Assembly (NCBI GenBank): GCA_965238055.1
Contig: OZ250178.1
Location: 2,009,184-2,073,183, forward strand
From: Candidatus Foliamicus sp.
GTDB lineage: Bacteria; Pseudomonadota; Gammaproteobacteria; Steroidobacterales; Foliamicaceae
Direction of reading: 5' to 3'
DNA length: 64,000 nt
Part shown: positions 3,833-15,039 of the stretch, piece after piece
Position numbering within the stretch: position 1 is the stretch's first letter
Layout of the letters: every line of letters starts with the position of its first letter
The notes under the pieces: generated by a model
Told to the model about the DNA's origin: nothing
Database searches by the model: none
Seen by the model: only the letters and a program-made list of their open reading frames with translations
Program-made: the position numbers and the translations under genes

Positions 3833-3971
3833 GATAGTGGGGAAGAGTTAGTTCATTGGCCAAACGAAACCCGAAAAGGTCGCCCGATTGGTTCAATGCC
3901 CAATGTCCGGCGCAAGGCGATCAAGGAACTTCTTCGGAGAGACCTTGGCCGTGCTACCCAAGATCCTCAGG

Positions 3972-4376
3972 CTATTCCACCGAATCACGTTGGCCACCGG
4001 AACAACATATACGTTCACCTCGGGGAACGGAACTATGTCGGAAAGTAATGAATCCTCTGATACGACTGAGTTTTTCTTGGAATCCCGTCTCACTGAAGCT
4101 GCGTCCTGACCCAACCTGATTACTGGGAGTGAAGTAAACGCCGCCATTGGTAATCCATCGTACCTCCCACTTTTCATTTTCTGGGTCGAGAAGATCGTAT
4201 CCTGCACCTTCTGAGGGCGCCAATCTCCAGTCCTGATGTTCGTTGGCTAATCTTCGTTCAATGATGAAAGAAACTCGGCGCCCGTCCGTGAAATATTCGC
4301 GCACGTCATCTCTGGAAATACGAAATGCTCGCGCGAGTTCTGCCTCATCCCAGGTAATTCTGAATTTTTCTTGCAC
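3972..4376 (-). CDS. Putative type II restriction endonuclease (PD-(D/E)xK-like); 3' end may continue to 3893 in another frame
   Basis: GTG start at 4376 with SD GGAGG 6 nt upstream, 36 nt downstream of the methyltransferase gene. GYDLLDPENEKWEVRWI has the D-x2-D-x6-E-x-(K/R) spacing I recall from PvuII (GNDAVDNAGQEYELKSI). A second open frame (3893-4207) encodes a more protein-like tail. Confidence 0.45.
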   Translation of the reverse strand: MQEKFRITWDEAELARAFRISRDDVREYFTDGRRVSFIIERRLANEHQDWRLAPSEGAGYDLLDPENEKWEVRWITNGGVYFTPSNQVGSGRSFSETGFQEKLSRIRGFITFRHSSVPRGERICCSGGQRDSVE

Positions 4377-4412: not shown

Positions 4413-5642
4413 CTATAGGCGCTGTAACAGTACGATGCGATTGGTGTTAGTTCCCTTCGTTCCGTTCACCACACCCCAGCAATTTGCAGTCTTCGTGAAT
4501 TTTTGGTCGTTAATCATTACCCCCAACCTGTCGAACGGGAGCGATTGCGCAGCTTGCCAAACAAGACCCTCAAGTAGGATGCGTCCTCCTCGCACCTCCC
4601 CAACTTCAAATGCTACGTAGCCACCTGGCCTGACTATCCTGGCCAGTTCGCGCAGAACACTATGGACCATTCCGGTCCATGCGTCTTCCGTTCGGTGCAT
4701 GTCTATGGCTACCATTGATGGATCGATGCCCGCAAACCAGCATCGCAGCCAATTGTCGGCTGCATATTGCACAACATCCAGGAACGGGGGTGACGTTACA
4801 ACGAGATCGACACTGCCGTCAGCTATTTCCGGCATGTCCCAGGCGGTCTTGGTATGTAAGCTGAATCTGGCCGGTCTAGGAGCGCACCCATCGCGCAGAA
4901 GCGACATTGACTTCTTGATTATCAGTTTTTCAACGTCACGCTCGGGTGGCTCAACACCCAGTTTCTTGTTTATCTTCAACTGGGCCGTAATCGAGACTGC
5001 CTGATTGGGAGGAAGCGATCGCCCAGAGAAGAATCCCGGCGAATGCCCAGATAGACGGCTAAGCGCTACCATCCGTATCCAATCTACTACTGGTTGAACC
5101 TGCTGACCGCCGGTCGGGGTGTTGTCCCGAATCCAAGTCCTCAGGGCTTCGAGCTTCCGCAGAGTCGTGGGGTGGTAGAACGCAAGAAGGTCCTTTCTTG
5201 CAATTTCGCCACTGCTCCAATTGACATTGCACAGGGCGCCCCTGATTTGTTCCAGCGTTATCGGGCCCAATCGAGGACGAGTGAGCATTAGAGAGAGAGG
5301 ATTGATGTCGTTTCCGTATGCGCAACGATCCATTAGAGCGGCCTGAACGGGTGTTGTACCCCGTCCCATGAATGGATCAAACACCGTATCTCCAACTCTT
5401 GTTAGACGAGCAATGAAGAATTCCGGCAATTGAGCCTTGAAACATGCGCGATATGACACCTCGTGAATGGAATGGGATCGCCTTTGACCGGCAGTCCAGA
5501 ACTCGTTTACATAGTAAGGAATACCGCCTTCGTTAAGTAGACTTGTGGCTTGCCCAAAGTCGCTGAACTTGGATACGTTCGTGATGAAATGTTCACGAGA
5601 TTGAGCAAACAAGTGATTCTCGGAGATCGAGAGTTGCATCAT
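4413..5642 (-). CDS. N4/N6 DNA methyltransferase
   Basis: AdoMet motif I VFDPFMGRGTT at aa 87-97. Catalytic motif IV TSPPF at aa 283-287, with about 190 aa (putative TRD) between them. Confidence 0.85.
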   Translation of the reverse strand: MMQLSISENHLFAQSREHFITNVSKFSDFGQATSLLNEGGIPYYVNEFWTAGQRRSHSIHEVSYRACFKAQLPEFFIARLTRVGDTVFDPFMGRGTTPVQAALMDRCAYGNDINPLSLMLTRPRLGPITLEQIRGALCNVNWSSGEIARKDLLAFYHPTTLRKLEALRTWIRDNTPTGGQQVQPVVDWIRMVALSRLSGHSPGFFSGRSLPPNQAVSITAQLKINKKLGVEPPERDVEKLIIKKSMSLLRDGCAPRPARFSLHTKTAWDMPEIADGSVDLVVTSPPFLDVVQYAADNWLRCWFAGIDPSMVAIDMHRTEDAWTGMVHSVLRELARIVRPGGYVAFEVGEVRGGRILLEGLVWQAAQSLPFDRLGVMINDQKFTKTANCWGVVNGTKGTNTNRIVLLQRL

Positions 5643-5788: not shown

Positions 5789-6211
5789 CTAAGGCGCTTC
5801 CAGCCACCTTGCGTGTGCCGCCAATTCGTTAGCATGTTGCTTTTGTTGTTCGCGTCTCTCGTCCATGGTTATCTTCAGAAAAATGCCGGCATGGTAGACG
5901 TTTTCCGGAATCGGAGTGGCTTTAACGGTTCTGCCGCTCGTTGCCGCTGCCTCAACAGTCAGTATTGCCCATCCCTGACATTGCCGAGGAGGTGTCCTGG
6001 CAGCCGCGCGTATCCTACACAGGTCAGCCATTTCAGAGAGTGGCGCATGATCCATTCGATCGACCGAAATAGACGGTGCTTCTGCATCTTCGAGAAAAAC
6101 GTCACGAATGATTACGTTCTTCGCCCGAGCTCGTTTTGCAACTCTGCTGGAAACAACACTTCTGCCCAGTCTCTCATCATTCCCTAAATTAGGCAGACTG
6201 GATTGCATCAC
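5789..6211 (-). CDS. Hypothetical protein P3 (third gene of coupled trio)
   Basis: 140-aa ORF. Its start (GTG 6211 or ATG 6208) overlaps the stop of the upstream gene. Lies in AT-richer DNA. I recognise no motif with confidence (notable strings SISVDRMDH, GWAILTVEAA, ENVYHAGIFL). Confidence 0.6.
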   Translation of the reverse strand: MMQSSLPNLGNDERLGRSVVSSRVAKRARAKNVIIRDVFLEDAEAPSISVDRMDHAPLSEMADLCRIRAAARTPPRQCQGWAILTVEAAATSGRTVKATPIPENVYHAGIFLKITMDERREQQKQHANELAAHARWLEAP

Positions 6212-6828
6212 TTAGCGCTAGAAGTTTTCTTTAGTGCTTCCAATTGAGCCTTAACGAATTCATCCGGCATTTCTGTAGAGTCCTCAAAACGCGCTCGCCG
6301 ACTCTTGCCATTCGTGTAAGCGAAACATGCTCCTTGCAGATCATCATTTATCTCAATGATTACTGCTTCCGATGCCACTGGTGACCGAAAATGAATCGCA
6401 ATTTCTCCATCCTTGGTGGGATATATTGTTGGTGCTATGGTTTGATACCGCAGATCATTTAGTATCCTTTTCGCTTCGCTCCGCGCGGCTGAGCCAATCT
6501 GCGGCAGATTATCCTCCTTGATCTCCTCGTCGATTGTTGCTAGTTCCGTCAGCGCTTCAGGAAGCCAAGTCCTATCTTCCAATAGTTCTTGGATCTCTAA
6601 GTAACGAGCAGAGTTCAGCAGTTCAAAAGATTTCCTCAGCTCACCATGCTGCTGCTCAGCCTCTGCTTGGCGTCTTCTTGCATTCCCAATCAATTTGATC
6701 AGGCGTGCTCTTGGCGCCTTTGTGAAACTCACCTTTTGGCTTGATTCCCGATGTCGCGGGAATGGCATTGGACGGTATGTGTATGGGTCTTGATTTGGAT
6801 GGATAGCCAATTCCGTTGCCGACATCAT
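6208..6828 (-). CDS. Hypothetical protein P2 (second gene of coupled trio)
   Basis: 206-aa ORF. ATGA overlap with the upstream gene at 6825-6828, with the strong SD GAGGAGAGGG directly upstream. Charged, helical-looking centre (RRRQAEAEQQHGELRKSFELL...IDEEIKED). The C-terminal half alternates beta-like segments (GEIAIHFRS...AVIIEINDD). Confidence 0.65.
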   Translation of the reverse strand: MMSATELAIHPNQDPYTYRPMPFPRHRESSQKVSFTKAPRARLIKLIGNARRRQAEAEQQHGELRKSFELLNSARYLEIQELLEDRTWLPEALTELATIDEEIKEDNLPQIGSAARSEAKRILNDLRYQTIAPTIYPTKDGEIAIHFRSPVASEAVIIEINDDLQGACFAYTNGKSRRARFEDSTEMPDEFVKAQLEALKKTSSAK

Positions 6829-7619
6829 CCCTCTCCTCGATTTAGGCCAACTGCTTTGTCTGCAACGTCGGATAGCCCACTTATGATTCGATCCAAGTTG
6901 TCAGTATCTTCAGCGTCACGCAGCAGTATGGAAACATTTGTACTTACAAACAACTCATCATTGAATTGAAGGGATTTTTCTACCAATCTTTGCAGGCTCC
7001 AATTTTTCTTGGTACCGATCAGAGCAATACGTATAGACGGCTGATAGGATACTGCTGCTTCAGACTCTAACGCTTCCAAGATCTTGTCGTGAGCGAATTG
7101 GTTCAGATATTCGTCTACCGATTGCTCATCGTCCGAGTGCACATGCTCGTTGCAACGAAAATATAGCGTGTCTTGCTTGTGGCTGCCAAAATCAGATGCA
7201 AGCCAGCCTAAGGTGGATCGCATCGTCGAAAATACAGCGGGGTAGGCAGCATAGCTTACATTCTTGAAAGTCAGTCTCAGTTCATTTGGTGTAAGTGTGA
7301 TTAAGCATGCGCCTCCAAACAATCGGCACCTGCACGACATATCACCTAGAGAATTAGACAAGTTCACATTAAAGTCTTCTGCGAGCACTATTGTGTCAAA
7401 CCTTTCTGCGAGCCCACTAATAAACTTTTGCGACGCACCCGCCCAGTCAGCAATGAAGGGCGTCAGTGCAACACTGAATTCCAACTGTTTGTCGTGGGAT
7501 CTGACCGGCAAGTTCATCAGTCTAAGCGGATTTTCCATTTGATAATCCAAAAAGTCTAACACTGACAAAGGGTCAGTGAGATTCAGTCCTATTTTGAATT
7601 CTTTCCCGCAATCATGCAC
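6825..7619 (-). CDS. Hypothetical protein P1 (first gene of coupled trio)
   Basis: 264-aa ORF with a GTG start at 7619 and no clear SD, so the true start is uncertain. No signal peptide or TM segment, and no motif recognised. Confidence 0.55.
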   Translation of the reverse strand: MHDCGKEFKIGLNLTDPLSVLDFLDYQMENPLRLMNLPVRSHDKQLEFSVALTPFIADWAGASQKFISGLAERFDTIVLAEDFNVNLSNSLGDMSCRCRLFGGACLITLTPNELRLTFKNVSYAAYPAVFSTMRSTLGWLASDFGSHKQDTLYFRCNEHVHSDDEQSVDEYLNQFAHDKILEALESEAAVSYQPSIRIALIGTKKNWSLQRLVEKSLQFNDELFVSTNVSILLRDAEDTDNLDRIISGLSDVADKAVGLNRGEG

Positions 7620-7825
7620 TTCGGAGTGGAAGCGGGGAGACTATTAAACACGCAACTCCGAAAAGAAAGTTCTGTTCGAAGCAATCTATAAACAAAATCG
7701 GGTAGAAACTAATGCTCTATCGACTTTATCTCCTTGAGGTTGTGTCTCCATAAGTAACGATATGGCGTGCTATGCGCGATTCCGCAAGTCGGGATTTCGT
7801 CCCGGAAAATTCGGGGGTAATGCAC

Positions 7826-8041
7826 ATGCCAAAGAAGCTCTGCGGCGTATATCTCATTGCCGTAGCCGTCCTGGTTGCAATCCACACCGTCGCCGAGCCG
7901 CTGTACCACGCGTCAGGACCCGGCCAGCCATACAGTCCATTCTGGACCATTGTGAACCCTTTGACGGCGCTGGCAATTGTATTGGGCGTTATCTTCAACT
8001 ACACGCGCAAGCAGGGCGCCGGTGTCGTGTCCCGGGAATAA
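7826..8041 (+). CDS. Small membrane protein (2 predicted TM segments)
   Basis: ATG at 7826 preceded by GGGGG. Two hydrophobic stretches (VYLIAVAVLVAI and LTALAIVLGVIF). Confidence 0.4.
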   Translation: MPKKLCGVYLIAVAVLVAIHTVAEPLYHASGPGQPYSPFWTIVNPLTALAIVLGVIFNYTRKQGAGVVSRE

Positions 8042-8056
8042 GTTTCGCATCAGCGC

Positions 8057-8548
8057 GTGAGGATCATTGCGCGGGGAGCGGCCCTTGCGCTCCTGTCGCT
8101 CGCCTGGGTCCCGGTTACTCAGGCGCTTGACTGGAGCGATAGCGAATTTCACTTTCAGTACGGCCGGATTGACGTGCCCTCGTTTGCCGGGGGCGGAAAG
8201 CCAAGGCAGGCTATCTACATGCTTCAGCATGCGCATGGTTGGAAGTACGGCGACAACTTCTTCTTCCTGGATGCGCTTGATTCGAGGAGTCGCGATTTCC
8301 AGGATTCCGATTTCTACGGTGAGTGGTATTCGAATTTCAGCCTTGAGGGCCACATCGAGTACATTGGTGGCCGGAACAACGAGTTCGGCGGCGACCTTCG
8401 GGGTTGGTTGCTTGCACAACCACAACTGCGCTGGAAAGTCACCGGCCGTCTTTCCTTGGGAATCGAGGTTCAATTTTGGATGAATAAACTGGGAGACGGC
8501 GCTACCGACGAAAACACCGTGCTGGCGCTTTTTGTATGGCAGTTCTAA
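8057..8548 (+). CDS. Tsx/OmpK-like outer-membrane channel family protein (short form)
   Basis: Signal peptide ALALLSLAWVPVTQA. WKYGDNFFFLD and DFYGEWYSNFSL resemble the Tsx family. Ends in a terminal aromatic (VWQF). At 163 aa it is shorter than typical Tsx. Confidence 0.5.
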   Translation: MRIIARGAALALLSLAWVPVTQALDWSDSEFHFQYGRIDVPSFAGGGKPRQAIYMLQHAHGWKYGDNFFFLDALDSRSRDFQDSDFYGEWYSNFSLEGHIEYIGGRNNEFGGDLRGWLLAQPQLRWKVTGRLSLGIEVQFWMNKLGDGATDENTVLALFVWQF

Positions 8549-9462
8549 GGATTACATTGTTGATCGTGCTGGGCCTGGCGGGCTCGCCGGCACTGGCTGA
8601 AGAGGATCCGGGCCCGGCGAGGTTCCGGGATTGCGATTCGTGCCCGGAAATGGTCATCGTGCCACCGGGCGAGTTCATCATGGGGGCAGAAGGCGGCGAG
8701 GAGGGCCGCCCGGAGGGACCGCCGCGCAGTGTTGCCATTGGCCAGGCGTTCGCGATCGGCAGGTTCGAGGTCACCAATCGGGAATTCGCTGTATTTGTTG
8801 CCGAAACCGGGTACCAGACTCCGCCGAGTTGCGCGGTCCGGGTCGGCGACGAGTGGCTGATGCACCCTGAATCGCACTGGACCGACCTTCAAACCGGTCA
8901 GGAATCCGAACCGGACCACCCGGTAGCCTGTGTCAACTGGCTGGACTCACGCGCCTACGTTGCCTGGCTGGCTGAGAAGACTGGTCAGCCCTACCGGCTG
9001 CCCAGCGAAGCGGAATGGGAGTACGCGGCGCGCGGCGGTGTGAGCGGAGAGTTTCACTGGGGCGATGACCCCGATGAGGCCTGCAGGTACGCGAACGTGT
9101 ATGACTCAAGCGCAAACGCGGAGCACGGTTTTGGCTGGCAGGCCGCGGCTTGTGACGATGGTTTTCCGACCCTGGCGCCCGTTGGGCGACTCGAGCCCAA
9201 CGGATTCGGACTGCATGATGTCGCCGGCAATCTCTGGGAATGGGTGGAGGACTGCTATGAAGCGCCCTTTGCCGCGCACATGCCCACCGATGGTTCGGCG
9301 TACGGACCTCCGTCAGGGCAATGCGAACGGCGGAGCGTACGTGGAGGCAGCTGGAGCAGCCGCATCAGCCGCCAGCGCCCTGCCTTCCGTGGCCGCGACC
9401 CCGAAGACCTTCGTTACTCCATCTTCGGCTTCCGCGTCGCCCGTTCTCTGGCGGCGGAGTAG
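8536..9462 (+). CDS. Formylglycine-generating enzyme (SUMF1/FGE-sulfatase) domain protein, exported
   Basis: Signal peptide. Motifs FRDCDSCPEMVIVPPGEFIMG, LPSEAEWEYAARGG, NLWEWVEDCY, RGGSW and GFRVARSL. Confidence 0.85.
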   Translation: MAVLRITLLIVLGLAGSPALAEEDPGPARFRDCDSCPEMVIVPPGEFIMGAEGGEEGRPEGPPRSVAIGQAFAIGRFEVTNREFAVFVAETGYQTPPSCAVRVGDEWLMHPESHWTDLQTGQESEPDHPVACVNWLDSRAYVAWLAEKTGQPYRLPSEAEWEYAARGGVSGEFHWGDDPDEACRYANVYDSSANAEHGFGWQAAACDDGFPTLAPVGRLEPNGFGLHDVAGNLWEWVEDCYEAPFAAHMPTDGSAYGPPSGQCERRSVRGGSWSSRISRQRPAFRGRDPEDLRYSIFGFRVARSLAAE

Positions 9463-9477
9463 TAACGAACGGCTAGA

Positions 9478-10413
9478 ATGCCGGGCATGAAACAACATGC
9501 ATTACTAATGGCCCTTGTCCTGGGGTTGGCGATTGAATCGGTGGCGGCTGAAGAACATTCGGAGCCGGAGACCTTCAGGGATTGCGATCAATGTCCCGAA
9601 ATGGTCGTGGCGCCGCCCGGAAAATTCATCATGGGAAGCGAAGATGCAGTGAGCGACCGCCCGATGGGGCCGCCTCATGAAGTCCGGATCGCCCAACCTT
9701 TTGCACTGGGCAAATTTGAAGTCACCAACCGGCAATACAAGGATTTTGTGGATGCTACCGGCTACGAGATGTCGAAGGGCTGTCGCGGCAACATCAAAGG
9801 CGAGTGGACGGACAATCCCCTGGGGCACTGGACCGATTTGCGAGTGGGACAAGAGTCCGATCCGCAGCACCCCGTGGCCTGCGTCAGTTGGCTGGATGCT
9901 CGCTTCTACCTTGCCTGGCTGTCCGGGATCAGCGGCCAGGTCTATCGCCTGCCTAGTGAGGCGGAATGGGAGTACGCGGCTCGCTCGGGAGGCGGTGAAT
10001 TTTATCACTGGGGCGAAGATCCCGACCAGGGCTGCGCATACGCCAACATGTATGACTTGAGCGCCGATGCGGTGCACGACTTTGGTTGGCCGCTGATCGA
10101 CTGTGACGATGGGTATTCGACCCTGGCGCCCGTGGGGCGGTTTCGGCCGAATGGATTCGGGCTGTATGACATGACGGGCAATCTCTGGGAATGGGTAGAG
10201 GACTGCTATGAAGTGCTCTATCCCGATGACATCCCAACGGACGGGTCGGCGTATGGACCGCCGCCGGGACAATGCGAAAACCGCAGCGTCAGGGGCGGCG
10301 GTTGGATTACCAATCCCGACTGGCAGCGGCAAACCTTCCGCGGCCGCGATCCCGAGAGCGCGCGCTACACTTTCTTCGGCTTCCGCGTCGCCCGCTCCCT
10401 CGATACCGAGTAG
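9478..10413 (+). CDS. Formylglycine-generating enzyme domain protein, exported (tandem paralog)
   Basis: Same motif set as 8536-9462 (FRDCDQCPEMVVAPPGKFIMG, NLWEWVEDCY, RGGGW, GFRVARSL). Confidence 0.85.
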   Translation: MPGMKQHALLMALVLGLAIESVAAEEHSEPETFRDCDQCPEMVVAPPGKFIMGSEDAVSDRPMGPPHEVRIAQPFALGKFEVTNRQYKDFVDATGYEMSKGCRGNIKGEWTDNPLGHWTDLRVGQESDPQHPVACVSWLDARFYLAWLSGISGQVYRLPSEAEWEYAARSGGGEFYHWGEDPDQGCAYANMYDLSADAVHDFGWPLIDCDDGYSTLAPVGRFRPNGFGLYDMTGNLWEWVEDCYEVLYPDDIPTDGSAYGPPPGQCENRSVRGGGWITNPDWQRQTFRGRDPESARYTFFGFRVARSLDTE

Positions 10414-10609: not shown

Positions 10610-12049
10610 TCAGGCGGCCTTGCCGTAGCCCAGCACGGCTTTCGTTTCGAGAAACTCCTCCAGCCCCTCGGGGCCTGACTCCCGGCCGTTGCCGGATTGC
10701 TTGTAGCCCCCGAACGGCGCGCTGAAGTCGCCCGAGTCCCCGTTCAGACAGACCTGGCCCGCTTGTAGCCGCGCCGCCACGCTCCGTGCCTGGTCCAGGT
10801 CGCTGCCCCAGATGTAGGCGGCCAGCCCGTAGTCCGTGTCGTTGGCGATCGCAATCGCTTCGTCCAGGTCCTGGTAGGGAATCACGCAAAGCACGGGCCC
10901 GAATATCTCCTCGCGGGCTATGGTCATATCGTTGCTGACGTTGCCGAACACGGTGGGCTTTACGTAGTACCCGCGCTCCAGGCCTTCCGGCTTGCCAGGT
11001 CCACCGGTGGCGAGCTGTGCGCCCTCTTCAATGCCCTTGTGGATCAGACCCTGCACCTTGTTGAACTGCGCCTCGCTGACCAGCGGCCCCATGGATGTGC
11101 TTTCCGCTTCGGGATCGCCGATACGCGCCCGTGCGGCGGAAGCCACCGACAGCTCGACCGCCTTGTCGTGCAGGGCAGCCGGCACCAATAGCCGGGTGGG
11201 CGCATTGCAGGACTGCCCGGTGTTCATGCACACGTCACGCATACCGCTGGTGACGCCTCGCTCCAGCATGGACTCGTCCAGGATGATGTTGGGAGACTTG
11301 CCGCCCAGTTCCTGGCTGACGCGCTTGACCGTTCCCGCAGCCGTCGCGGCAACCGCGATACCGCCGCGGGTGGATCCCGTGAACGAAACCATGTCGATAT
11401 CGGGATGTCCGGCGATTGCCTGACCCACCTCCGGCCCGTCGCCGTTGACCAGGTTGAACACGCCTGCAGGCACACCCGCCGCCTCAATGACCTCGGCGAA
11501 GATCATGCCGCTTAAGGGCGCGATTTCGCTGGGCTTCAGCACCATGGTGCAGCCCGACGCCAATGCCGGCAATACCTTCAGCGTGATCTGGTTGATCGGC
11601 CAGTTCCAGGGCGTGATGAAACCGCACACGCCGATGGGTTCGCGTCGAATCAAGGTGCCGCCACGCTGCTCTTCAAACCTGAAGTTCTCCAGGAGGCGCC
11701 GCGCGGTCTTGGCGATAACGATACCCATGGCCGCCTGGGCCTTGGTTGACAGGCGAGTGGGTGCTCCCATCTCCGCTGTGATTGCGGCCGCCATGTCGTT
11801 GTAGCGAGCCTTATAGGCGGCGATAAAGGCATCGATCAGCTCCAGGCGCTCCTGTTTGCTGGTTCGCGAGTAACTGGCAAAGGCCGTGCGGGCGGCTGCG
11901 ACTGCGCGGTCGACATCCGCAGCGCTCCCAAGCGAAATAATTCCGGAGGGTTTCTCGGTAGCCGGGTTGATTACTTCAAGATCGCGCGGTGCAACTGGTT
12001 CGACCCATGCCCCGTCAATGAAAAACCTGCGAAAATCGTACTGCGCCAT
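10610..12049 (-). CDS. NAD(P)+-dependent aldehyde dehydrogenase
   Basis: 479 aa. Motifs VLKPSEIAP, ELGGKSPNII and catalytic Cys region GQSCNAPTR. Confidence 0.9.
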   Translation of the reverse strand: MAQYDFRRFFIDGAWVEPVAPRDLEVINPATEKPSGIISLGSAADVDRAVAAARTAFASYSRTSKQERLELIDAFIAAYKARYNDMAAAITAEMGAPTRLSTKAQAAMGIVIAKTARRLLENFRFEEQRGGTLIRREPIGVCGFITPWNWPINQITLKVLPALASGCTMVLKPSEIAPLSGMIFAEVIEAAGVPAGVFNLVNGDGPEVGQAIAGHPDIDMVSFTGSTRGGIAVAATAAGTVKRVSQELGGKSPNIILDESMLERGVTSGMRDVCMNTGQSCNAPTRLLVPAALHDKAVELSVASAARARIGDPEAESTSMGPLVSEAQFNKVQGLIHKGIEEGAQLATGGPGKPEGLERGYYVKPTVFGNVSNDMTIAREEIFGPVLCVIPYQDLDEAIAIANDTDYGLAAYIWGSDLDQARSVAARLQAGQVCLNGDSGDFSAPFGGYKQSGNGRESGPEGLEEFLETKAVLGYGKAA

Positions 12050-13854: not shown

Positions 13855-14139
13855 ATGACGACGAGACGACGCCGGTTCACGGCGGAATTCAAGAAAAAGG
13901 TGGCGCTAGAGGCGCTCCGCGGAGATCGCACGATTCAGACGATAGGAGCCCGTCACGGGGTGCATCCGAACCAGGTGAGCACCTGGAAGCGGCAGGCCAT
14001 GGACGGTCTGGGGGATGTGTTCGCGGGTCGGGGTTCGAACCGCGGCTCGGGTCACGAGAAGACCATCCGGGAGTTGCACGCGAAGATCGGCGAGTTGACG
14101 GTGGAGCGGGATTTTTTTCTACGCGGGTTGGCGCGTTGA
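13855..14139 (+). CDS. IS3-family transposase OrfA (HTH)
   Basis: RRRFTAEFKKKVALEALRGDRTIQTIGARHGVHPNQVSTWKRQ is a typical IS3/IS911 OrfA. A T7 run at 14114-14120 is a candidate -1 slippery site. Confidence 0.9.
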   Translation: MTTRRRRFTAEFKKKVALEALRGDRTIQTIGARHGVHPNQVSTWKRQAMDGLGDVFAGRGSNRGSGHEKTIRELHAKIGELTVERDFFLRGLAR

Positions 14140-14975
14140 GTCGTGGGGAGCGGATCGGGATGCTGGAACGCGGCGGCGCATTGAATTTGAAGCACCAATG
14201 CGCGTTGCTGGGCGTCAGTCGCTCGTCGCGGTATTACAAGCCACTCGGGGAATCCGCGGAGAACATGCGGCTGATGCGGCGCATCGACGAGGCGTATCTG
14301 AAGTATCCGTTCTACGGCAGTCGGCAAATGGCTCGCCATCTGGGGCGTCTGGGGCTGATGGCGGGCCGTCATCGGGTCCGGCGGCTGATGGGATTGATGG
14401 GGCTGGAGGCGATCTATCGCAAGCCGCGAACGAGTGCGGCGCATCCCGATCACCGGGTGTATCCATACCTGCTGCGGGAGTTGACGATCGAGCGGCCGGA
14501 CCAGGTTTGGTGCGCGGACATCACCTATGTTCCGGTATCTCAAGGATTTTTCTATTTGGTGGCGGTGATGGATTGGGTGAGCCGGTACGTGCTGGCCTGG
14601 CGGCTGTCGAACACGTTGGACGGCGCCTTTTGCATCGCGGCGCTGGCGGCGGCGTTGCGCCTGGGGACGCCGGAGATCTTCAATACGGACCAGGGCGCGC
14701 AGTTCACCAGCGCGGCCTTCACCGAGCGGGTGCAAGCCGCCGGCGCTCGCTGTTCCATGGACGGACGGGGCCGGTTCCTGGACAACATCTTCATCGAACG
14801 GCTGTGGCGCTCGCTGAAATACGAAGCGGTGTACCTGCACGAGCTCGCGGACGGTTTCCAGGCCGAGCGCGTCATCTCGAACTGGGTTGGGTTTTACAAC
14901 GACTCGCGTCCGCACTCGGCGCTGGACGGGCGCACACCCGGCGAAGTCTATCGTGGCATCGCGGTGGCGGCATGA
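14136..14975 (+). CDS. IS3-family transposase OrfB (DDE integrase core), -1 frame relative to orfA
   Basis: Motifs VWCADITYV, FNTDQGAQFTS, IERLWRSLKYE and YNDSRPHSALDGRTP. Probably expressed as an OrfAB fusion by frameshifting. Confidence 0.9.
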   Translation: MSRGERIGMLERGGALNLKHQCALLGVSRSSRYYKPLGESAENMRLMRRIDEAYLKYPFYGSRQMARHLGRLGLMAGRHRVRRLMGLMGLEAIYRKPRTSAAHPDHRVYPYLLRELTIERPDQVWCADITYVPVSQGFFYLVAVMDWVSRYVLAWRLSNTLDGAFCIAALAAALRLGTPEIFNTDQGAQFTSAAFTERVQAAGARCSMDGRGRFLDNIFIERLWRSLKYEAVYLHELADGFQAERVISNWVGFYNDSRPHSALDGRTPGEVYRGIAVAA

Positions 14976-15039
14976 GCGCATCGGCGGGATTCAACCCAGC
15001 GGACCCGCCGGGGACCGGCCGCCTTGGAGTCCACACGCC

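Follow-up and report, generated by a model that had tools for sequence, protein, structure and literature searches.

Tripartite toxin–antitoxin (TA) systems, in which a TA pair is accompanied by a separate regulator or chaperone gene, include TAC (HigBA with a SecB-like chaperone), omega-epsilon-zeta and PaaR2-PaaA2-ParE2. Together with the type II TA pairs RelBE and FitAB/VapBC, these systems come closest in organisation to the three-gene cassette of Candidatus Foliamicus sp. that is described here. A further point of comparison is PDC-M32, a "phage defence candidate" of PADLOC which, like the cassette, is a multi-gene unit without assigned function, although it comprises two genes instead of three. 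The PADLOC candidates of this kind are the output of a guilt-by-embedding screen (PMC10855318) and, since PDC-M32 is an untested member of that set, similarity to it adds no mechanism.

The cassette lies on the minus strand of the window, which is the whole stretch of 64,000 nt that was analysed (assembly GCA_965238055.1, contig OZ250178.1, positions 2,009,184-2,073,183). Its three genes, named P1, P2 and P3, are listed below in the order of reading, with their junctions and surroundings.

7539..7771, minus strand: AT-rich intergenic region, presumed promoter/operator of the operon
6825..7538, minus strand: P1, putative accessory first gene; 237 aa from ATG at 7538, in a frame open to GTG 7619 (264 aa)
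6825..6838, minus strand: P1/P2 junction, an ATGA stop/start overlap with the Shine-Dalgarno-like GAGGAGAGGG before it
6208..6828, minus strand: P2, putative antitoxin; 206 aa, ATG start
6206..6211, minus strand: P2/P3 junction GTGATG, where the P2 stop overlaps GTG by 4 nt and ATG by 1 nt
5789..6211, minus strand: P3, putative toxin/effector enzyme; 139 aa (ATG 6208) or 140 aa (GTG 6211)
4413..5642, minus strand: Type II N6/N4 DNA methyltransferase, context outside the cassette; Pfam N6_N4_Mtase, E 7e-15, PADLOC MTase_II, E 2e-201
3893..4376, minus strand: Type II restriction endonuclease, context, frameshifted near 4045; PADLOC REase_II

A first-pass annotation of this DNA had described three minus-strand open reading frames of 264, 206 and 140 aa, chained by stop/start overlaps, without recognisable domains and placed where the window is richest in AT, and the ORF list, the sequence and the database searches agree with it on all of these points. 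At the first junction the P1 stop TGA (6825-6827) overlaps the P2 ATG (6826-6828), with GAGGAGAGGG directly upstream at 6829-6838; at the second, the P2 stop TGA (6208-6210) is overlapped by both GTG 6209-6211 and ATG 6206-6208. The GC content of 6001-8000 is 0.474, the minimum of the window, against about 0.60 elsewhere, and searches of Pfam, NCBIfam, PHROGs and PDB sequences returned no match for P1, P2 or P3. P1 probably starts at ATG 7538, because the resulting protein of 237 aa is the database form (P0001) and in the orthologues the alignment begins at residue 28 or beyond; for P3, the start is probably ATG 6208, which gives 139 aa. The upstream region 7539-7771 holds no ORF common to the orthologues and no match to the sigma-70 consensus, and a perfect 8-bp inverted repeat is found at 7620-7627/7655-7662. 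Scans for promoters and terminators gave nothing exceeding shuffled sequence, Rfam returned a single sub-threshold and spurious match to SNORD15, and no long repeats were found flanking the island.

With type II TA pairs such as RelBE and FitAB/VapBC the cassette has several features in common. A small putative antitoxin gene overlaps, and lies directly upstream of, the gene for a putative toxin of ~140 aa, and the two are adjacent, co-oriented, tightly coupled and co-inherited, as in a type II TA pair. Variant loci fuse a RelB or FitA-like DNA-binding domain to the P2 domain, and the cassette is multi-copy, often decayed, horizontally spread and found beside other toxin–antitoxin pairs. However, searches of Pfam and NCBIfam with the window P2 detected no domain, DNA-binding or other, a third gene is present at the locus, and P3 falls outside RelE, ParE and PIN by sequence and by Foldseek, with no recognised toxin superfamily to receive it. 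With tripartite TA systems the cassette shares a third gene that is dispensable where the P2-type antitoxin has a folded N-terminal domain of its own, in parallel with chaperone "addiction" or separate-repressor logic. It differs from them in that P1 and its DUF3467 substitutes (see below) resemble neither SecB nor known repressors, and in its gene order, which is accessory-antitoxin-toxin with P1 as the presumed accessory; as regards TAC, no SecB-like third gene was found, P1 and its orthologues being without a Pfam match. In PADLOC the cassette yielded one weak and partial match, between P2 residues 77-197 and positions 245-371 of the 375 of PDC-M32A (E 1e-6), which takes in only the last third of that profile, and nothing for window P1 or for window P3 (E <= 1). 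No P1 orthologue matched PDC-M32A, its C-terminus was matched by 37 of the 55 P2 orthologues, and PDC-M32B was matched by two of 113 diverse P3-family members (E 0.007).

The trio is a real, co-inherited and horizontally mobile cassette. A search seeded with P3 recovered 60 loci; the metagenome-assembled genomes (MAGs) that carry them represent seven or more lineages at phylum level. Among 61 non-redundant loci, 38 had the three genes side by side and all intact. P2 was intact in 53 of these 61 P3-seeded loci, P3 in 51 and both in 48. A search seeded with P2 found 25 metagenome loci, 20 of them with P3 directly downstream. The P1 stop was placed between -23 and +10 nt from a P2 start in 45/49 loci, and the P2 stop between -20 and +23 nt from a P3 start in 51/56, most commonly as a 4-nt overlap. 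Such an arrangement is far beyond chance, because dozens of unrelated genomes have the three genes in this order and with overlapping junctions. The pairwise identities of P1, P2 and P3 are also correlated (r = 0.87-0.92), and with the 38 intact trios this answers in the affirmative the question, raised by the first-pass annotation, of whether the genes travel together. The nearest relatives of window P3 outside Foliamicus were found in Acidobacteriota (62% identity), and those of other Gammaproteobacteria reach ~53-55%. Nearly every host is an uncultured MAG; Acidobacteriota, Binatia, Nitrospirota, Proteobacteria and Tectomicrobia are among the lineages represented, and several of the lineage names point to sponge symbionts.

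Several genomes carry two copies of the cassette, and decayed copies or fragments also exist. P1 was lost, broken or replaced beside intact P2 and P3 in 10 loci, and P3 was broken beside an intact P2 in four. Leaving aside L041, where the P2 call is borderline (coverage 0.86), an intact P3 without an intact P2 was clearly seen in one locus only (L007), which retains an 80-aa ORF of the P2 C-terminus and whose P3 bears a P100H change. This combination of an intact P3 and a disrupted P2 would be unexpected if P3 were lethal.

The core of the cassette is the C-terminal domain of P2 together with P3. In P2, the C-terminal domain (residues ~88-200) is conserved, the stretch held in common by 55 orthologues being residues 88-205, and the N-terminal ~85-87 aa are variable; the conserved positions are mostly hydrophobic or structural, as are those of P1, and an ortholog profile gave chance matches only. 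Only two fusions of this domain to ribbon-helix-helix (RHH) modules were found. In the first (L025), a FitA-like RHH (PF22513, E 2e-18) is fused N-terminally to the P2 C-domain and, in the second (L085), RelB (PF04221, E 8e-15) occupies the same place; in both, P3 follows and a P1 gene is absent.

P3 has 30 close homologues and belongs to a family of 684 clusters at 50% identity. Across 113 diverse members, H107 is invariant and R17, S49, D51, R94 and N104 are conserved in at least 90%, and the strings SISVDRMDH, GWAILTVEAA and ENVYHAGIFL, which had been singled out from the window sequence alone as conserved-looking, prove to be the conserved motifs of the family. The AlphaFold model has a pLDDT of 93.2. 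Because of these conserved polar residues and the confident model, P3 looks like an enzyme. With this model, Foldseek found no match in PDB (best E 0.6) or BFVD (best E 9e-3), and even a profile of the 113 sequences matched nothing in Pfam, NCBIfam, PHROGs or PDB sequences. Two candidate activities were considered and set aside. An ADP-ribosyltransferase-like P3 (R on beta1, S-x-S on beta2, H-x-D on beta5) had no ART structure among its Foldseek matches, and a clue to an RNase from LigT-like neighbours was dismissed, such neighbours being present in two related genomes only. In the literature on PDC-M32, DUF3467, Foliamicus and the P3 motifs, no functional information was found.

Of the three components, P1 evolves fastest and is most readily replaced, and in other variants its place is taken by a DUF3467 protein. 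No family match was obtained for it in PADLOC, in addition to the databases named above, and no DNA-binding or chaperone signature was detectable; the best PDB match of its ortholog profile, 1yqh at E 0.06, is not meaningful. The AlphaFold model, built on a 6-sequence alignment, is of low confidence (pLDDT 52) and presents a duplicated beta/alpha pattern. Resemblances to TBP or AdoMetDC, which come from this low-confidence model at Foldseek E >= 4e-3, are not trustworthy. By hhalign and PDB profile search, P1 shows no relationship to DUF3467, nor do the DUF3467 substitutes show one to E. coli SecB.

Taken as a whole, the locus is best read, with a probability of roughly 0.55, as a tripartite toxin–antitoxin-like, possibly abortive-infection, module, whose toxicity and neutralisation are inferred from its architecture. 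Toxin–antitoxin logic is proposed because the P2 domain is fused to the DNA-binding domains of the RelB or FitA antitoxins in two-gene variants. The three genes would form one operon, in which co-translation through the overlapping stop/start codons would fix the stoichiometry of P1, P2 and P3. P3 would be the effector, an alpha/beta enzyme of ~140 aa with no recognised fold, for which R17, S49/D51/R52, R94 and N104/H107/D109 are the candidate catalytic residues; when freed, it would arrest growth, its substrate probably being a nucleic acid or a nucleotide. P2 would act as the antitoxin, its conserved C-terminal domain binding and neutralising P3, and its variable N-terminal ~85 residues may be a regulatory or lability segment. 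P1 would be a swappable accessory that regulates, stabilises or senses by way of the P2 N-terminus, a role suggested because RHH-P2 lineages have no third gene, DUF3467 proteins are swapped in, and P1 decays where P2 and P3 persist.

Further observations were counted for the toxin–antitoxin reading. The decay is asymmetric, P2 being almost never lost while P3 is intact, and this was counted for the putative antitoxin role. Selfish-module behaviour (two copies, decayed fragments, cross-phylum relatives, and contexts of TA, IS and defence genes) was likewise counted, as was the distant similarity of P2 and P3 to PDC-M32 A and B. A bolder form of the proposal, which we regard as speculative, is that P3 founds a new toxin/effector superfamily with a fold and chemistry outside the PDB, and that one of several control modules (the fused RHH, DUF3467 or the 237-aa P1) is combined with the single neutralising domain, the P2 C-domain, the separate ones serving as phage sensors or stabilisers; the whole would then be a new tripartite abortive-infection system.

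The neighbourhood bears on the alternatives. It had been noted that the trio lies 146 nt upstream of, and co-oriented with, a methyltransferase/endonuclease pair. The spacing and orientation are correct, the methyltransferase starting at 5642, and the methyltransferase itself was confirmed; the endonuclease is frameshifted. PADLOC REase_II covers only profile positions 1-111 of 160, and tblastn with the intact 160-aa endonuclease of a relative (L006) gave a window alignment split between frames -3 and -1. Given this frameshift, the restriction-modification "pair" of the window consists of a methyltransferase and the pseudogene of an endonuclease, unless the sequencing is in error. Moreover, adjacency to restriction-modification genes could not be upheld as a property of the cassette. 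Of 111 proteins encoded downstream of the cassette in 56 loci (two per locus), only 4 have the N6_N4 methylase domain. Three of these belong to L002, L006 and L007, the Ca. Foliamicus relatives which alone have the methyltransferase in synteny with the trio; no restriction-modification genes are nearby in L003 to L005.

It is conceivable, though rather unlikely, that the window cassette is a decaying remnant which has lost its function in this genome, irrespective of what the family does in others. In window P3, residue 109 is Gly; at this position Asp is near-universal (30/30 close homologues and 53/55 locus orthologues), and 107 of 112 diverse family members have D, E or N. Besides the frameshift in the adjacent endonuclease, the same island is decaying in sister genomes, with P1 and P2 broken in L007 and the endonuclease lost in L002. 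Nevertheless, none of the three ORFs is truncated, the overlaps at both junctions are intact, the Shine-Dalgarno is strong, and an assembly error could account for the frameshift in the endonuclease. Window P3 retains R17, S49, D51, R52, H55, R94, N104 and H107 and departs from the family consensus at 32, 78 and 113 besides 109 and nowhere else, and one substitution may merely attenuate it. The window copy may be attenuated, on account of D109G and the frameshifted neighbour.

A dedicated anti-phage system, in which P1 would sense a phage cue, P2 would serve as adaptor or inhibitor, and P3 would be the effector that infection sets free, with abortive infection as the outcome, is a doubtful alternative. 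It overlaps mechanistically with the toxin–antitoxin reading and differs in taking phage defence as the selected function. The replaceability and fast evolution of P1 are as a sensor's should be, and P2 and P3 weakly resemble PDC-M32, but the latter is itself only a candidate and the matches are partial or marginal. Some copies reside in accessory DNA with toxin–antitoxin islands, IS elements, Shedu/GmrSD or methyltransferases: one adjoins Shedu SduA_C and GmrSD (L095), another HEPN_AbiU2 and a RecD-like helicase-nuclease (L025), and methyltransferases adjoin the cassette in the window and in L094. However, the immediate neighbours of the cassette are mostly housekeeping genes, tblastn of window P3 and the C-terminal 122 residues of window P2 against plasmids and phages found no match, and IMG/VR gave a single locus. 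The candidate defence module of the first-pass annotation survives as a mobile, co-inherited cassette without known homologues; its restriction-modification link does not, and the architecture points to toxin–antitoxin logic.

A function outside conflict, such as a small regulatory or metabolic complex made up of P3 as the enzyme and two subunits for assembly or regulation, in horizontally acquired DNA, would agree with the enzyme-like P3, with the many cassettes among metabolic genes and with the lack of homology to known toxins, but it is improbable in view of the variants that join the P2 domain to an antitoxin module, RelB or FitA, the patchy cross-phylum spread with several copies per genome and frequent pseudogenisation, the variable third gene, and the search for a conserved metabolic neighbour, which found none.

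The P3 family lacks a Pfam model, and no structural relative of it has been solved or is detected by Foldseek. If the toxin–antitoxin reading is true, a sizeable family, of the 684 clusters given above, would join the toxin/effector repertoire, and the PADLOC candidate PDC-M32 would gain its first link to a function. The interchangeable third component, be it P1, DUF3467 or the fused RHH, represents a natural experiment on antitoxin control, and a small toxin with new chemistry, should P3 be one, might be put to use as a tool. The family would, in addition, help to explain the dynamics of accessory genomes, and possibly phage resistance, in microbiomes beyond culture.

The three overlapping genes of the cassette, P1, P2 and P3 (the trio), were read in the sequence as the first-pass annotation had claimed, chained on the minus strand by stop/start overlaps. 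They are separated by 146 nt from a methyltransferase gene downstream and occupy the window's lowest-GC kilobases (GC 0.474, against ~0.60 elsewhere). The locus comprises the following features.

3893-4376, minus: Type II restriction endonuclease, frameshifted (PADLOC REase_II, profile positions 1-111 of 160)
4413-5642: methyltransferase gene, downstream of the trio
5789-6211, minus: P3, ORF of 140 aa from GTG; alternative ATG at 6208
6208-6828, minus: P2, ORF of 206 aa
6825-7619, minus: P1, ORF of 264 aa from GTG; shorter form of 237 aa from the ATG at 7538
7772-8041, plus: 89-aa ORF, membrane-protein-like, divergent, between the trio and the sulfatase-modifying genes
8057-8548, plus: 163-aa ORF with a signal-peptide-like start, likewise divergent and between them
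8536-9462 and 9478-10413, plus: two tandem paralogous FGE-sulfatase (formylglycine-generating enzyme-like) genes bordering the island

At the P1/P2 junction, cgaGGAGAGGGATGATG, the P1 stop TGA lies within an ATGA shared with the P2 start, and a strong Shine-Dalgarno-like purine run precedes the overlap; at the P2/P3 junction, aaGTGATG, the P2 stop TGA spans a GTG and an ATG, either able to start P3. The claimed extents of two ORFs are probably too long: the database form of P1 is the 237-aa one, from which point alone its orthologues align, and P3 orthologues begin at the position equivalent to the ATG at 6208. The P3 ORF is conserved in the window's genome and in two relatives, in all of which gene callers missed it.

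The trio is a real, conserved and mobile unit. Homology searches seeded by words returned 6 relatives for P1, 7 for P2 and 30 for P3, and a P3-alignment scan covering one genome per species returned 60 loci, every one in MAGs, from Ca. Foliamicus (closest, at 68% identity, which points to a Ca. Foliamicus-like gammaproteobacterium as the probable source of the window), Vicinamibacterales and other Acidobacteriota, Binatia, Nitrospirales, Thermodesulfobacteriota, Alpha- and Gammaproteobacteria, and Entotheonellaceae/Tectimicrobiota. By tblastn with the window's three proteins, the order and adjacency P1-P2-P3 were kept in nearly all of these loci, and a census found all three genes intact in 38 of 61 non-redundant loci. 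A start codon lies -23 to +10 nt from the P1 stop in 45/49 loci and -20 to +23 nt from the P2 stop in 51/56, a 4-nt overlap being the commonest case. Across 41 cassettes, the matrices of pairwise identity for the three components (P1, P2 C-domain, P3) correlate at r = 0.87-0.92, a correlation to which shared ancestry alone contributes. Several genomes carry two copies, and decayed fragments are also present; a 184-aa predicted metagenomic protein (P0123), in which the N-terminal and middle parts of a P2 are joined to the C-terminal half of a P3, probably represents a cassette pseudogene formed by deletion and fusion. Outside Foliamicus, the window's P3 is closest to proteins of Acidobacteriota (62%), ahead of other Gammaproteobacteria (~53-55%), and this sequence relationship indicates horizontal transfer. 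Plasmids and phages gave no tblastn match to the window's P3 or to the last 122 residues of its P2, and IMG/VR gave one locus.

The core of the cassette is the P2 C-domain together with P3, and P1 is a swappable accessory. Conservation of P2 is limited to residues ~88-205, the N-terminal ~87 residues being unalignable across lineages. When metagenome contigs were scanned with the P2 alignment, P3 lay directly downstream in 20 of 25 loci, two of the other five lying on contigs cut off at P2 or no more than about 420 nt from it; P1 was found only among closer relatives. Minimal cassettes consist of the P2 C-domain and P3 alone (e.g., L084 and L062). Decay is asymmetric: P1 is broken or absent beside intact P2 and P3 in 10 loci, and P3 is broken beside intact P2 in 4, while P3 intact without intact P2 has one clear case, the Ca. 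Foliamicus relative L007, which keeps an 80-aa ORF spanning the P2 C-terminal subdomain and whose P3 carries P100H (in L041, P2 is borderline, at coverage 0.86). In L025, which has no third gene, the P2 N-terminus is a FitA-like ribbon-helix-helix (RHH) domain (PF22513, E 1.9e-18), and in L085 it is a RelB antitoxin domain (PF04221, E 8e-15), with P3 next in both; the L085 fusion directly follows a PhD/PIN-like pair, as read from translations. No single argument for P2 as a putative antitoxin and P3 as its toxin is stronger than this fusion of the P2 domain to two different, bona fide DNA-binding modules of antitoxins. Directly upstream of the L025 pair lies a gene for a 1282-aa protein (L025:1475-5320) with RecD-like AAA_30/UvrD_C helicase domains and with N- and C-terminal regions that have no assignment, a possible defence neighbour.

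P3 looks like an enzyme of unrecognised fold, judging from its sequence and model. Searching 1.8 billion cluster representatives with a profile gave 684 clusters at E <= 1e-3, of which 420 reach E <= 1e-10; single-domain proteins of 130-150 aa make up almost all of the 150 top-scoring ones listed. All 113 diverse members examined carry H107 and G80, and G16, R17, S49, D51, W81, R94, P100 and N104 are kept in at least 90% of them, within the motifs GRxVFS, ISVDR, GWA, GRxVxAxP and NPYHADI; the conserved positions of P1 and P2 are chiefly hydrophobic, Gly and Pro. The AlphaFold2 model (pLDDT 93.2, pTM 0.87) has the order beta-alpha-alpha-beta-alpha-beta-(alpha)-beta-beta-alpha-beta, and neither the PDB (best E 0.6, TM < 0.3) nor BFVD (best E 9e-3, TM 0.46, an unnamed protein) yielded a significant Foldseek match. 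No family member matches Pfam, and the family profile matches no PDB sequence.

Of the three components, P1 evolves fastest and is lost most often. It matched no family even when 42 orthologues were included, and its model from a 6-sequence alignment (pLDDT 52) has a duplicated beta/alpha pattern whose Foldseek matches (AdoMetDC-like, TBP-like, PA4090) are not significant. P1 occurs with the variable, non-domain P2 N-terminus and is missing where that N-terminus is RHH, and in four alphaproteobacterial loci (L045:5118-5402, L046:5093-5404, L053:5143-5439, L061:5140-5436) a ~95-aa DUF3467 protein (PF11950, E down to 3e-8) takes its place. From this comparative anatomy, we infer an exchangeable accessory role.

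The surroundings of the cassette were surveyed against Pfam (two nearest genes each side, 55-56 loci). Neighbours are heterogeneous and mostly housekeeping, with conflict-related or mobile-element families in the minority, among them N6_N4 methylases in 4, HEPN_AbiU2 in 3, DEAD helicases in 3, integrases, a resolvase, transposases and one EcoO109I endonuclease. Three of the four methylases belong to the Foliamicus relatives L002, L006 and L007, so adjacency to restriction-modification genes is specific to that lineage and not a property of the cassette. Some loci lie beside toxin–antitoxin or defence genes, such as L093 (a HipA/MazE/FitA toxin–antitoxin island) and L095 (Shedu SduA_C and GmrSD). 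Together with the contexts of L003 (PIN/PhD pair and DUF4926), L092 (IS-rich region with SLFN_AlbA_2) and L094 (N6 methyltransferase), these show that the cassette behaves as accessory, conflict-type DNA.

Among the Foliamicus relatives, the island of trio, methyltransferase and endonuclease is syntenic between the FGE-sulfatase genes, a pair conserved in related genomes, and lnt. Amino-acid identity to the window is 70-90% for the flanking lnt, amine oxidase and aldehyde dehydrogenase, 78% for the methyltransferase, 68-70% for P3, 60-62% for P1 and 54-56% for P2. Of the two divergent ORFs, the 89-aa one has a tblastn match in L006 only among three sister loci, and the 163-aa one has no match in any of the three. 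Some 6 kb from the island, the ORF list and the annotation of the contig that carries the window show an IS3-family-like transposase pair (HTH_Tnp_1 orfA then rve integrase; ~13855-15000, plus).

The restriction-modification pair described beside the trio retains its methyltransferase gene, but the endonuclease is frameshifted near 4045 (residues 1-118 in one frame and 110-158 in another, against the intact 160-aa L006 orthologue); therefore, the methyltransferase may be effectively orphaned, or the frameshift may be an assembly error. Codon 109 of the window's P3 (5885-5887) is GGC, Gly, at the Asp of the YHADI consensus, a position held by Asp in 30/30 close homologues and 53/55 locus orthologues and by D/E/N in 107/112 diverse members, which suggests an attenuated or inactivated effector. 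Taken with the frameshift and the decay of the island in the sister genomes L007 and L002, Gly109 points to a possibly attenuated copy in the window, in which the three ORFs and the two junctions otherwise remain intact. In L002, the endonuclease is only a 66-aa remnant beyond a 280-nt inverted repeat (9866-10145 and 11369-11648, 95% complementary) that flanks the orthologous methyltransferase gene and resembles a MITE-like pair or the scar of a rearrangement.

With regard to known systems, the proposed lack of recognisable domains held for P1, P2 and P3 in Pfam, NCBIfam, PHROGs and the PDB sequence search (zero matches), but PADLOC gave one weak partial match, of P2 residues 77-197 to the C-terminus of PDC-M32A (E 1e-6). 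PDC-M32, a 'phage defence candidate', is the nearest catalogued entity, although the architecture differs. The C-terminal third of PDC-M32A is matched by 37/55 P2 orthologues (best E 1e-6), PDC-M32B by 2/113 P3-family members (E 0.007) and neither by P1 orthologues; given such partial and sparse matches, the locus would be at most a distant relative of this uncharacterised candidate, not a member. PDCs themselves are 'guilt-by-embedding' candidates (PMC10855318; PMC12429752).

The reading as an undescribed defence module is thus partly borne out: the locus is an undescribed, conserved, mobile conflict-type cassette, and its best-supported mechanism is that of a tripartite toxin–antitoxin-like module, to which we give a probability slightly better than even (about 0.55). 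P2 would act as the antitoxin, P3 as a putative enzyme toxin and P1 as an exchangeable control component. The likeness to type II toxin–antitoxin systems would be one of function, with an extra component for which TAC, omega-epsilon-zeta and PaaR2-PaaA2-ParE2 are analogues; none of the proteins shows homology to a known family of toxins, antitoxins, chaperones or repressors. An anti-phage function would be plausible. DUF3467, by standing in for P1, is placed in a context for the first time, beside a toxin–antitoxin-like pair.
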